Below, piece by piece: positions 1 through 52,552 of a stretch of 64,000 nucleotides of DNA. The notes below the pieces were generated by a model. That model ran no database searches. It saw nothing but the letters and a program-made list of their open reading frames with translations, and was not told the DNA's origin. Within the stretch, counting starts at the first letter, position 1; every line of letters starts with the position of its first letter. The DNA is from Eledone cirrhosa. Lineage: Eukaryota. Where the stretch lies: assembly GCA_964016885.1 (NCBI GenBank), contig OZ024740.1:65162001-65226000 (forward strand), given 5' to 3'. The position numbers were made by a program, and so were the translations under genes.

Positions 1-450
1 ATATAACCTATCCTAATGTAATAAGATAAAAATACCTACAACCATAAGTCTTCATATACTCTATATACAATATTATAACTCATAATATAGGTTACAAATG
101 TCCTCCCAAATTAACGTTATTCCTTTCTCTTTTTCTTTCTCTTCCTTCCTTATCATAATTATTTTAATTTTCCATAGCGTCTAAAATAACGTCTTTTCAG
201 CCCTTTAATATAAACATAAGTTGCATACTCATATTAATAATTTTAAATATCTGACTTTTCTTCTGTCTTCCCTTCACTTTCCAGGGATAATTTGAACCGT
301 TAAGGTATATTATCTTTGGTCATCTCAAATATTTATATAACATGTTTTATTTTAATTGATGATAGCGTACCAACATTTTGGTACCCTTGAAATATATATA
401 ATAGAATAAATATGGTTTTATAAATATAGTTTCCATTTATTTAATATCAT
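1..450 (+). mobile_element. Probable 3' end fragment of a Penelope-like element with degenerate hammerhead motif (346-410)
   Basis: TTGATGA-T-AG.GTACC...GGTAC.CT-T-GAAA-T-ATAT-ATA followed by AATAAA, ending at a (TA)n tract; same layout as other PLE ends in the window. Confidence 0.45.
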
Positions 451-796
451 TGTATATACATATATATATATATATATATATATATATATATATATATATA
501 TATATACACACACACATACATATTAGGCTTTCACTCTTTTACCATACGGCTGAGGCTATATCTTTATATATATATAAGCATATACATACATATAAATGTG
601 TACATAATTTGCTAATGATAGAATTAACTTAATAATTAATCAATTAGTCAGAGCGGTATAAAATCATAAATAGGTAATGTAAATTATTGAAATTGCTGTC
701 GGAACCAAAATAGTAATTGAGATAATACTTTTACTATATCTATTTATGATTTATGACGTTCTAAATAATTGATTCATTATTTAGTTAATTCATTTC

Positions 797-955
797 AAGG
801 CCAACAATTACCCAGTGCATTACTGTTACTTTATTTTATCGATGCCGTAAGGATGAAAGGCAAAGTTAACGTCGGCGGGATTTGAACACATAATTTCAAA
901 GGCCGTAATTCTTTGCGTCAAATAATGGCGTCCGATCCTCTGCAGATACTGCCAA
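797..955 (-). mobile_element. tRNA-derived SINE (Nin/Deu-domain core), short-tail variant
   Basis: Minus strand has an A-box-like TGGCAGTATC, B-box-like GTTCAAATCCC and core TTAACTTTGCCTTTCATCCTTACGGC.TCGATAAAATAAAGT; about 10 homologous copies or fragments in the window. Confidence 0.8.
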
Positions 956-964
956 TATATATAT

Positions 965-1173
965 ATAATAATGGTTACTCATATAGGCACAAGGCCAGCA
1001 ATTTTGGGGGTGGGGAAAGTCGATTAAATCGACCCCAGTGCGTGATTGGTACTTTATTTCATCGACCCCGTAAGGATGAAAGGCAAAGTTAACCACGGCG
1101 GGATTTGAACTCAGCCGTAACTCTTTGCTGAAAAGCATGGCGTCCAACCCTTTACCGATACAGCCAATACACC
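965..1173 (-). mobile_element. tRNA-derived SINE (Nin/Deu-domain core), long-tail variant
   Basis: GAGTTCAAATCCC B-box, core GCCTTTCATCCTTACGGGGTCGAT, tail GTCGATTTAATCGAC...GGCCTTGTGCCT and (ATT)n. Confidence 0.85.
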
Positions 1174-1606
1174 GAATAATAATAAAATGGATAAGGTCTT
1201 AAATGTTCATTACAATGATTTAGGACTGATGCGTACCACAATTATTTGTTTTATAATCCCTACATTTGAGTGACAAGGGCTAAAACGGGATTCTGTTTCT
1301 AGTAATCCCGTTATTTATCAATCGCCTACGTCTTGCTTCCATTCTTGTGAACTGCATGCCTCGTAATAGTTTTCCCTTTCGAAAACTTCACTGGTAGCGG
1401 TCACTAGAATTGTTCTCTTGTTGTCAGAAGGTTCCCAGAAGAGACGTCTTCTCGCGGCTGATATATTAACTTATTAGAATATCCAGACTAGTCTTCAGGG
1501 TGAAAGTGCAGTCGGAACCTAAAAGTAATTAAGTAATTGTTATAAAAATATATCAGCACTACCACTCTTCTCCGTCTGGCTGAGGGGGGGGGGGGGGGGG
1601 CAACCA

Positions 1607-1978
1607 CCTTGCTTCTGCTGGAAACCACCAGAGAGCGTTAGCCCCAACGTTTTGTATAGCTACAGCTTTCTAAATGTTTACCTGTAAACATACCCTATTT
1701 CTTTAGAAATACCAAATTCTAATACATATCTGTAGACAACTATGCATGAAGCAAAATCCTAATTCTATGCTACTATAAGTTGAGCCATCTTAAGCAACTT
1801 CATATGTAAATGAGATTAATTACCTCATTTACGCAGATGAGAAAACCATATATTTTCGATTGTTTTCAAGTCCAGCAGTCGCAAGTGTGTGAGGCGTCGT
1901 CTTGATGAGTACCAGTGAAGTTTTAAATGCATCAACGATTGTCCCCCTTGCTTCTGCTGGACACCACCAGGGGGCGTA
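1607..1978 (+). repeat. Direct repeat (~32 bp, spacing 339 bp) containing a CTCF-consensus-like motif
   Basis: CCTTGCTTCTGCTGGA(A/C)ACCACCAG(A/G)G(A/G)GCGT at 1607 and 1946; CCACCAGGGGGCG at 1964-1976. Confidence 0.55.
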
Positions 1979-49423: not shown

Positions 49424-49552
49424 AATCCCGCCGAGTTCAAATCTCGCCGAGGTTGACTTTTCATTTCATCCTTACGGGGTCGATAAAATAAAGTACCAGT
49501 AATACACTGGGATAATTGGTGGCCTTGTGCCAAAAGTAGAAACAATTATTTA
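49424..49552 (+). mobile_element. 5'-truncated tRNA-derived SINE, short-tail variant
   Basis: GAGTTCAAATCTCGCCGAGGTTGACTTT...GGCCTTGTGCCAAAAGTAGAAACAATTATT. Confidence 0.8.
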
Positions 49553-49559
49553 ATATGCA

Positions 49560-50100
49560 ATGGAAAACATATTATTTGCTTATATTTGCCATGAATTGTT
49601 TTTTCTTTTATTATTCCCTGTTGCTTTGCAAATAAATCCAAGCATTTGTAAAGGGGAAGGAATATGGTTTTTTTTAAAATTTGGTTCTGTTCCTTCCAGC
49701 AGATGCTGCAATATTATTACTTTAAAATATGTGTCGGCTTTCTGCATCACGGATTTATAGCATGCCTATTGTCAATTTTTCGTATCATGACACTCCGGTT
49801 TGTCCTGTGTATTTTTATATATATCCACAGCATATTTTCACATCGATTTTGTTTTCCGAATTGTAGGTGAAACTTTCTTTTACCCTAGAGGTTTAATCAT
49901 CGATAAATCTGAATTCTGGTCCTTCAATTGTAAATAAGCTGCTACGACAGTTTGTTCTTCCGCATGTTTTAGCAGCGCTGTTGGTGATTTGTTTATGTGT
50001 TTTTTTTACTCCAGTAAGTATCTTTCTAGTGTTTTGGGTTGTCTTTTACATTTGATGATATGTGGTCTTTCAAGAAACGTTTTTTATATAAATAAGATGG
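49560..50100 (-). pseudogene. Decayed Neptune-like PLE linker/GIY-YIG fragment
   Basis: IIKCKRQPKTL..YL; KTCGRTNC; YTGQTG; IRD; PLYK-like end; same layout as 6830-7414. Confidence 0.6.
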
Positions 50101-50140
50101 AAATATATATATATATATATATATATATATATATATATAT

Positions 50141-51980
50141 AACCCCGAATACAATAGTTCCATTAGTACACATTTACCAGTACTCTTCTTTAAAATAATT
50201 AAAAGACATTTTCCCACATCACACAAATACCACAAAATCCTAAACCCTACCACTATAAGACTGTCATACTCTACAGCGTTAAACCTTGAACAACACATAA
50301 AAAAGATCAATACTAGAAGGTTAAACGAAAACACTAAGAACTTAAGTACAAAGAACACAAAAAAAACAGTAGACAATACACTACAGAACATAAATAAACC
50401 ACATCTAAGTTCGTCCGCAATACTACTCCAGAGAAAACCCAACGTACACAACTGTAACTGCACCTATCCTGACAACTGCCCCCTCGGCAATAACTGCCTG
50501 GAAAAAAATATTATTTATAAGTGTACCATTAAATCCGGGGGCAACGAGTGGTATTACGTGGGATCAACGGCAACATCGTTTAAATCTCGATTGTATAGGC
50601 ATTCTTACTCAATAAAACACCAGAGCCAAAGAAATGTAACAACTTTAGCAGAAAAAGCTTGGACGCTCAGGGATAGCGATCAAAAGTTTACCCTAAAATG
50701 GGAGAAATAAGCTAAAACCCAAAGCTTTTCCAGGAGCCAAAATTTCTGCAAATTGTGTAATCTTGAGATTTATTACATAATCACACACAAGAAGAAACTG
50801 CTGAATAACAGAATTGAACGAACATTATTCTGCCGTCACAGAACTAAAACCATTTTTTCCCACTACAAGCCGAATATTACATAAAAGAGGGTCATCCCCC
50901 AACTATATAAACCTTAATCTAGTTAGAAAAATATAAAAACAATCTCTTCTCAACATATATTAATAACCTTAAATTACCACACTAATAATGGAAAGATATG
51001 CTGATGAGAATAGGTGCAAATATGCGATAATGAATGTGTCTAAAAACGTCCATAAGTATGTATATATATGTGAAAATGTATATAAATAAGTAAATATATA
51101 TATATGTTTGATGTGTATAGTTAGATGTAAGTGTATTCATGTATTAAAGTGCATATATATTTATGTATATGTGTATGTATATGTATATGTGTATATATAT
51201 ATATATATATATATATATATATATATATATATATGTATATGTATATATATGTGTATATGTATGTATATATGTGTATATAGATGTGTATGTATGTGTATGT
51301 GTGTACACATGGACTAGAGTAAGTATGTATATATGTGTGTGTCTATACGTGTGTATATAAAGATAAGTTGAGTATGAAAATGTATACACATGAGTGCGTA
51401 TGTATGTACAGGAATACATGTGTGTATATATATGTGTATGCATGTGTATATATATATAAGTATGAATATGTGAATTGTGAGTATATGTATTTTGTAGAGG
51501 TGTGCAAATATATTTGTGTGTGAATGCGTAGGTGAAAGGATACGTACACTTGAAAGAAAAATTTAAGTCTGAATGTTAATTAAGTGCAAACACAAAACCA
51601 ACCACGCATATCTTTACTATCTCTAATCCTTCTATAGATTTAGAAAAATAACCAATAATATATTCTATAAAAAATGTCAAAACAACAGATGGGAATCTAA
51701 TTACTCACTGCCACCAAGAATTCTCACTGCTATCGAAAAACCACTCCTTCAACTATTCTTCTAACAACTTCACCCCTCCCTCCTAATATTCTCTATAAAA
51801 AACTAAATAGGTCCTCAGTAATATTATTCTGATGAAATGACAGTAAATAATAACATTGAAATATTGAATGTCTGCATAACTAAAAGTTTGTAGATAGCAG
51901 CTGTTTTAGGTTATGTAACTGTTATAGAAACACGTGTCAATAAATTCCTTTCAACTAAACTGTATCCATTCAAATCTTTC
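50141..51980 (+). mobile_element. Naiad-like PLE 3' part (GIY-YIG 50141-50884, microsatellite-rich UTR, terminal HHR)
   Basis: KRHFP.SHKYHKILN..TIRLSYS; HNCNC...NCPLGNNCL...IIYKC...YYVGSTATSFKSR; C..CNLE; FCRH; ends at (TA)n. Confidence 0.88.
51824..51943 (+). ncRNA. Type I hammerhead ribozyme with long stem II
   Basis: TTATT-CTGATGA-A-ATGACAGT...ACTGTTAT-A-GAAA-C-ACGT-GTC-AATAA. Confidence 0.8.
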
Positions 51981-52210
51981 TATATATATATATATATATA
52001 TATATATATATATATATATATATATATATATATATATATATTTATCTAAGTACAAAATTATGATAAATGAATTAAATGAATTTAATCTAAATCGAAATCA
52101 TGGGTGTCATGACATAATGCATGCGCCATATATCCTGGGAATTTAAGCTCAAAGATAAATAAATCTGAGCATATTATAATAACAGAGATTGATTAACATA
52201 TAAAAATACA

Positions 52211-52552
52211 GTATACTAGGGAAAGGATCAGGGGTGTATAACACTCCACTTATCCAGCAGGCAGTATGAGGTTAGCTCAATGTCTGAGGACAGAGCCGTA
52301 ATATAATAAATAAATAACAAAGAACGCTTATAGCATATGCATATCTTTACTTGCTAACATTGTTTCATCCGCACTATAAGTGGGACTCATCAGAGCATAA
52401 AGGTTAATTACATACCATACAAGCAATAACAAATCCAAGACATTGAAGAATGAAAGGTAATAATAGACGATAGAGGATAAGAATAAAAATAAAAATAAAA
52501 GTAAAAATAAAAATAAAAATAAAAATAAAAATAAAAATAAAAATAATATATT
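52211..52552 (-). mobile_element. HHR-bearing insertion with apparent ~15-bp target-site duplication; HHR at 52352-52397
   Basis: ACATATAAAAA(T/C)ACA at 52196 and 52553; TGCT-CTGATGA-GTCC-CAC-TTATA-GTG-C-GGAT-GAAA-C-AAT-GTT-AGCA. Confidence 0.7.

Follow-up and report, generated by a model that had tools for sequence, protein, structure and literature searches.

Hammerhead ribozymes whose helix II closes on a mismatch have been described in several settings, summarized here from the portions of each paper that we drew on. A natural U10.1-U11.1 closure was reported in 2011 by Perreault et al. (PMC3088659), who also name a viroid U4C variant and, citing Ruffner 1990, give U.U as the most active mismatch in vitro. 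In the axolotl, ~60,000 retrozyme hammerheads carry U.U (HHR_Amex2; Cervera and de la Pena 2020, PMC7229834), with 22% cleaved in 1 h as the monomer and more as the dimer. Among the hammerheads of Hydra-clade Penelope-like element (PLE) retrotransposons (Craig et al. 2021, PMC8557442), 14 of 25 tabulated families are U.U by our own count; the table calls them canonical and, in the parts of the paper covered, they go without comment by the authors. The PDF text of Fig. S3 in Cervera and de la Pena 2014 (PMC4209133) gives U.U in 2 of 56 rows, from Hydra and D. willistoni, and one row, probably Cotesia, with an extra A before GAAA, which may be A.A, the order of the PDF text being unsure. Here we analyze a 64,000-nucleotide (nt) stretch of the Eledone cirrhosa genome, hereafter the window (C1:65162001-65226000, contig OZ024740.1; assembly of 3.0 Gb in 1,796 contigs), which is 35% G+C, is rich in (TA)n, holds fragments of long interspersed nuclear element (LINE)-type and PLE retrotransposons, and contains 22 type I hammerhead motifs, many of them mismatched at 10.1/11.1.

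The closing mismatch as a family state

The mismatched closing pairs are states of whole families rather than products of decay. With motifs named by the position of C3 and their strand, helix II closes with U.U in 11 of the 22 window motifs (356+, 7773+, 21986-, 26257-, 26903+, 30592-, 36542-, 36962-, 37209+ with C3G, 46832+, and 6034- with U4A) and with A.A in 3 (16732-, 20376+, 51829+); the others are 4 G-C, 1 G.U (52393-), 1 probable U.G (27365-), and 2 degenerate U-A (21784+ and 23386-). The motifs, together with one 3' half at 25052-25081, were identified by descriptor scans and by homology to sampled motifs; matches of the loosest scan at 1580, 39065, and 40469 were discarded because that scan also gave 6 matches on the reversed window. 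The core (CUGANGA, GAAA, NUH, type I order) is unaltered in 13 of the 22, at least one core change is present in 356, 6034, 16732, 20376, 23386, 36542, and 37209, and the stems of 21784 and 27805 are weak. The core of 16732/20376 reads CCGAUGA, the U4C change. Helix II is long in 16732/20376 (80 nt), 51829 (91 nt), and 30592 (95 nt), and in the predicted folds of these helices 10.1/11.1 is unpaired and 10.2-11.2 is paired (z of -1.6, -5.8, and -3.9, respectively).

These results bear out the initial annotation in its count of about 20 hammerheads, many with U.U or A.A; all 10 U.U and 3 A.A motifs that it named are present in the sequence, including the C3G change of 37209, and for minus-strand motifs its coordinates are often those of the 3' end (e.g., 30475 for the motif with C3 at 30592-). 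Its statement that G-C is confined to the 471-nt family fails at 27805-, a minimal hammerhead outside that family with an extra A followed by G-C.

To follow the closing pair within families, copies were taken as the best genomic matches to each query motif, which biases fixation upward and perhaps counts overlapping loci twice. Among these matches U.U is kept in 42/44 copies of the 26257 family, 45/45 (30592), 35/35 (36962), 48/49 (46832), and 30/30 (26903), A.A in 37/37 (20376) and 30/30 (51829), and C.A in 51/51 of the sampled L071 family; a ninth family is G.U in 30 of 32. G-C is absent among the inspected copies of every mismatched family. The 51829 motif occurs in at least 40 copies at 100% identity, and the family is therefore young; contigs from three sequencing runs cover the motif, and for these no change is listed in its core or for positions 10.1/11.1. 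U4C is likewise the family state of 20376, with 589 exact matches (control 0); 88 of the first 100 listed have C, and the T copies at this site are consistent with CpG decay. The U4C core is also fixed in several other sampled families, which have the same helix III palindrome as 20376/16732. Among sampled motifs with a helix II of 50-116 nt, L086:3516, L091:1539, L071:8489, and L048:8234 close with C.A or G.G, and the L071 family, ~98% identical among its best matches, forms tandem units of 524-531 nt.

Variation within families is unevenly distributed. In three families 10.1/11.1 vary in 0-4% of copies, as the core does, compared with 6-47% at loop 2, N7, and stem I positions. For loop 2 in the 46832 family the figure is 22-45% of copies; in the 36962 family it is 23-47%, at N7, loop 2, and two stem I positions that pair with each other. 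Copies of the 26257 family are too alike for such a comparison. Stem I contains compensating changes. The low variation at 10.1/11.1 points to selection on the mismatch within families.

A wider scan took in 120 stretches of 10 kb (1.2 Mb), 100 of them distributed across C1-C7 and 20 next to the window. Many pair types occur at 10.1/11.1, and U.U, at 46 of 139, is the commonest. The descriptor scan found 139 motifs versus 1, 2, 0, 1, and 0 in the reversed and shuffled controls, and one or two singleton motifs are probably due to chance. After U.U, the closures are an extra nucleotide followed by G-C (20), G-C (19), A-U (18), C.A (8), A.A (7), G.U (6), A.G (6), A.C (3), and others (6). Thus, 72 of the 139 are mismatched (46 U.U, 26 other) and lack the Watson-Crick 10.1-11.1 pair of the consensus hammerhead, and G-C is present in 39. 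Helix II exceeds 40 nt in 24 motifs, and U4C occurs in 9, 8 of them mismatched. The density in the 100 spread stretches, 1.11 motifs per 10 kb, corresponds to ~330,000 per genome (bootstrap 250,000-420,000; basis C1-C7). An exact short-U.U pattern, which is blind to pairing, matches 100,445 times genome-wide compared with 371 for its reverse. Searches that require 10.1-11.1 to be paired or helix II to be short would miss more than half of the motifs here. With the Rfam hammerhead models, only two window matches appeared among the matches listed, both to G-C motifs and at 28 bits versus 52, below the gathering score, and 14 motif-rich loci (140 kb) gave no match at the gathering score; the Rfam scan of the window was dominated by microsatellite matches to microRNA models.

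Host elements and a probable dimer mechanism

The window features are as follows, with hammerheads (HH) given by closing pair.
348-410, +: type I HH, U.U, loop III ATAT; copy from an AT-rich family, decayed by C3U and stem I changes, 94% identical to L094:477
5996-6041, -: HH, U.U, U4A copy; within the inverted pseudo-long terminal repeat (pLTR) copy of the Neptune-like element
6785-7414, +: C-terminal GIY-YIG endonuclease open reading frame (ORF), CxxxxCxxC linker, Neptune-like PLE by motif comparison and tree (Pfam PF01541, E 9e-6)
7766-7811, +: HH, U.U, helix II of 3 base pairs (bp), loop III GTAC; ~360 nt 3' of the endonuclease
16623-16742, -: HH, A.A, U4C core, long helix II; in an inverted pLTR copy (16571-17203 versus 19905-20536)
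17749-19442, +: frameshifted reverse transcriptase (RT) and endonuclease, Hydra-clade PLE; CxCX5C linker, no CCHH, no Pfam match
20366-20484, +: HH, A.A, U4C core, 80-nt helix II, loop III AATT
21775-21830, +: degenerate HH, U-A at 10.1/11.1; its sampled relative is C.A
21946-21989, -: HH, U.U, 2-bp helix II; 295 nt 3' of the Hydra-like endonuclease remnant 22281-22613
23338-23390, -: degenerate HH, kin to a U4C family
24289-25965: 471-nt retrozyme-like repeat, tandem and inverted; G-C HHs at 24580-24625 (-), 25227-25272 (+), and 25699-25743 (+), half at 25052-25081 (-)
26218-26267, -: HH, U.U; 274 nt 3' of the Hydra-like endonuclease remnant 26531-26746
26898-26962, +: HH, U.U; C.C mismatch inside helix II
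27258-27372, -: probable old HH, U.G, 83-nt helix II; a single copy was considered
27768-27814, -: minimal HH, extra A then G-C; ~1.4 kb 3' of the Poseidon-like endonuclease remnant 29227-29811, with similar spacing in L072 and L113
30469-30601, -: HH, U.U, branched 95-nt helix II; family of 737-744-nt tandem repeats
36505-36550, -: decayed HH, U.U; kin of 21986 and 26257
36807-37367: short non-coding element, inverted pair; U.U HHs at 36922-36972 (-) and 37199-37249 (+, C3G); largest family of the sample
46826-46873, +: HH, U.U, 3-bp helix II, 4-bp helix III, CTAG in the loop
50096-50710, +: endonuclease ORF, Hydra clade, CxCX5C linker
51819-51948, +: HH of a very young family, A.A, loop III ACGT, 91-nt helix II (z -5.8)
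52346-52403, -: HH, G.U

Motifs of six lineages (7773, 20376, 21986, 26257, 27805, and 51829) lie 3' of PLE ORFs and occur in tandem or inverted copies. The spacing to the endonuclease is steady, at ~210 nt in the 26257 family and 1050-1230 nt in the 51829 family, and a Neptune-like endonuclease is found upstream of the 7773 U.U motif in 8 of 12 family loci. The U.U motifs 26257 and 21986 and the A.A motifs 20376 and 51829 all lie 3' of endonucleases with a CxCX5C linker. Compared by eye (17749-19442 and 50096-50710), the 17749 RT resembles the Hydra rows of PMC8557442, with no CCHH, a divergent RT4, and a C-terminal endonuclease; a search for its longer relatives returned one unnamed protein. 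A Nematis-like label for the 17749 and 50096 elements was rejected, the linker and RT features being those of the Hydra clade. The extra-nucleotide G-C motifs lie 3' of Nematis-like and Poseidon-like endonucleases. In a tree of 11 fragments, with long branches and window and sample fragments alone, the Hydra-like ones separate from the rest (98/93). Three of the mismatched window lineages with a linked ORF are Hydra-like, and the proposal that the families are otherwise unrelated is not supported; shared ancestry explains much of the recurrence of U.U, which was probably inherited in the Hydra clade and is separately present in the Neptune-like element.

Most families without a linked ORF form tandem units of 312, 421-573, 463-471, 524-531, or 737-744 nt. 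Short non-coding tandem units each bearing a type I hammerhead, as in retrozymes, are thus present, and these repeats likely derive from PLEs. A good retrozyme candidate lies at C1:5388711-5392665, where head-to-head arrays of a 310-nt unit each contain the U.U hammerhead pattern. The 46832 family (window 46740-46873; L232-L255) is a very short element with no linked ORF, often with an overlapping inverted partial copy such that hammerhead-like sequences overlap on opposite strands. The window also contains a ~535-nt repeat with direct and nested inverted copies in a PLE-like layout (52035-54187), in which motif scans found no hammerhead; a LINE-type element with an RT domain and open frames of 633 and 532 amino acids (58393-61829, -); a broken LINE-type element with RT and endonuclease domains (55341-57521, +); and a dispersed ~150-nt repeat with at least seven copies (796-1183, 39491-40902, 49430-49552, 53273-53466).

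Collectively, the position 3' of endonucleases, the palindromes, and the tandem and inverted copies support the earlier proposal of PLE-type hammerheads acting as dimers. The window contains all the loop 3 palindromes that it listed (GTAC, AATT, CTAG, ACGT, ATAT). Of 139 sampled motifs, 83 are exactly palindromic from A15.1 to U16.1, and the helix III palindromes are predicted to form duplexes at -3.2 to -10.3 kcal/mol and no hairpin alone. We think it probable that type I motifs in the PLE 3' repeats and in the derived short tandem repeats cut the element transcript slowly and tolerate the mismatch, acting mainly as dimers because the palindromes pair between copies, the monomers fold weakly, and the copies are tandem or inverted. 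By analogy with published relatives, which supply the cleavage, transcription, and U.U geometry of this model, transcription through two copies would bring their palindromes together in one common helix III, cleavage after GUA, GUU, GUC, AUA, or CUU would release unit-length RNA, and this RNA would be copied by the PLE RT. Helix II would tolerate U.U or another mismatch at its base, where the two U residues would be expected to wobble-pair beneath the sheared A9.G12 pair.

Several points weigh against this model. The call of fixation rests on best matches to the query and hence is biased upward, and the clade names rest on motifs from one paper and on a small, reference-free tree. For the 36962, 46832, 26903, and 30592 families, ORFs at a steady distance were not found, and we infer a PLE origin. 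None of the 8 monomers folded took up the complete three-helix structure, and the z of 5 was weaker than -1. Finally, support for cleavage comes from sequence and published relatives.

Alternative explanations of the mismatches

One alternative, which we regard as somewhat unlikely, is that 10.1/11.1 is unconstrained in dimer hammerheads and that U.U prevails by ancestry and AT bias rather than by working best. Indeed, eleven closing types occur among the 50 sample families, G.G being among the states seen beside A-U, G.U, C.A, A.A, A.G, and A.C, and in other phyla most Hydra-clade elements have U.U. Moreover, one superfamily can be aligned on the C.C mismatch that its members have in helix II, and there the closing pair is G-C, A-U, U.U, A.C, C.U, or G.U; this alignment fixes the numbering and shows that the closing site is relaxed. 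However, U.U occurs in 12 of 25 mismatched families versus 17% expected from base composition (p 4e-4, with families that share ancestry and are not independent), these columns vary little within families, and U.U is also found in the Neptune-like element, the axolotl, and Drosophila willistoni. The proposal of a selected structural variant thus stands in part: the mismatch is a family state with core-like conservation, but the position is broadly relaxed and U.U is merely the commonest of its states.

It is also possible, if unlikely, that the families combining A.A, U4C, and a long helix II are no longer catalytic, their fold being retained for protein recognition or priming or carried along as a passenger in the repeat. 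U4C is said to cut activity considerably in vitro (PMC3088659, as far as covered), minimal PLE hammerheads are weakly active even as dimers (PMC4209133, likewise), Naiad PLEs spread without canonical hammerheads in the parts of PMC8557442 drawn on, and the 20376 monomer is not stably folded into the motif. Against this, several U4C sequences that look unrelated retain stems I and II, the remaining core, and the palindrome, and the U4C viroid in PMC3088659 is still infectious. File S1 of PMC8557442 holds eight Naiad elements, two of them cephalopod, labelled "half-core", their second box lying at a distance of 35-50 nt; such elements may carry long-helix hammerheads like those of Eledone cirrhosa. 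Assignment of the long-helix motifs here to Naiad elements was rejected, no Naiad-like ORF lying upstream of them in the sample.

We consider it improbable that the first U is instead an extra nucleotide between A9 and 10.1 and the last U a bulge before G12, with the next Watson-Crick pair closing helix II. A conserved extra nucleotide 9/10.1 is described in PLE hammerheads (PMC4209133, in the part used), and such a geometry is present in 23 of 139 sampled motifs. However, in the C.C-anchored superfamily U.U stands in the same register as the G-C and A-U of its relatives, two papers (PMC3088659 and PMC7229834, as drawn on here) treat U.U as a mismatch pair, and from sequence alone the two geometries are inseparable. 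Decay of old G-C hammerheads can be dismissed as highly improbable: window copies 356, 6034, 36542, and 37209 are indeed decayed elsewhere, but G-C to U.U takes two changes per copy, the G-C copies that the decay alternative raised in the initial annotation predicts are absent among the inspected copies of the mismatched families, and one A.A family has identical copies.

Relation to described hammerheads

The U.U variant, raised initially as possibly novel, is already catalogued in 14 of 25 Hydra-clade PLE families and in the axolotl retrozymes, and the hammerheads here are one very large further instance of the PLE/retrozyme class. What may be new are the A.A closure, the helix II of 80-116 nt, and the U4C core fixed in amplifying families, for which we found no description in the PLE-hammerhead literature searched, its figures being unsearchable and Lunse et al. 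2017 outside that scope; judged by its title, the latter concerns the same class (small PLE variants cleaving as dimers) and may already cover these variants. Tentatively, the ~330,000 hammerheads, half of them mismatched, could include an undescribed amplifying Hydra-clade lineage of active ribozymes closed by A.A, C.A, or A.G, with U4C fixed and 50-116 nt in helix II. If so, animal hammerheads are strongly undercounted by standard descriptors and Rfam, and some PLEs scored as lacking a hammerhead may carry one. The significance lies mostly in scale and in a natural mutational series, in which one genome presents most closing pairs on related scaffolds, copy number and age roughly indicate which forms a retroelement can tolerate, and whether and how fast PLE hammerheads must cut becomes open to test.

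Within the parts of the papers covered, the likenesses and differences are as follows. Like the minimal PLE hammerheads of PMC4209133, the motifs lie in PLE repeats, form opposite-strand pairs, and have a palindromic loop 3, with 27805 fitting the consensus; whereas that paper calls G10.1-C11.1 highly conserved, here G-C is found in 39 of 139. As in HHR_Amex2, which cuts better as a dimer, U.U lies at the base of helix II and the motifs are in tandem repeats (units of 312-744 nt here). In contrast, Amex2 has loop 1-loop 2 contacts, and here there are more copies and many more families. As in the Hydra-clade PLEs of PMC8557442, a type I motif with a 2-4-bp palindromic helix III lies 3' of a CxCX5C endonuclease in a (TA)n setting. 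The helices II listed there are short and none of the listed motifs is A.A or U4C, whereas here helix II reaches 80-116 nt, and C.A, which appears once in that list (PLE-X1_cBra), closes 8 of the 139 sampled motifs here. Finally, U.U and U4C are rare among the natural variants of PMC3088659, whereas in Eledone cirrhosa both are fixed in high-copy families.

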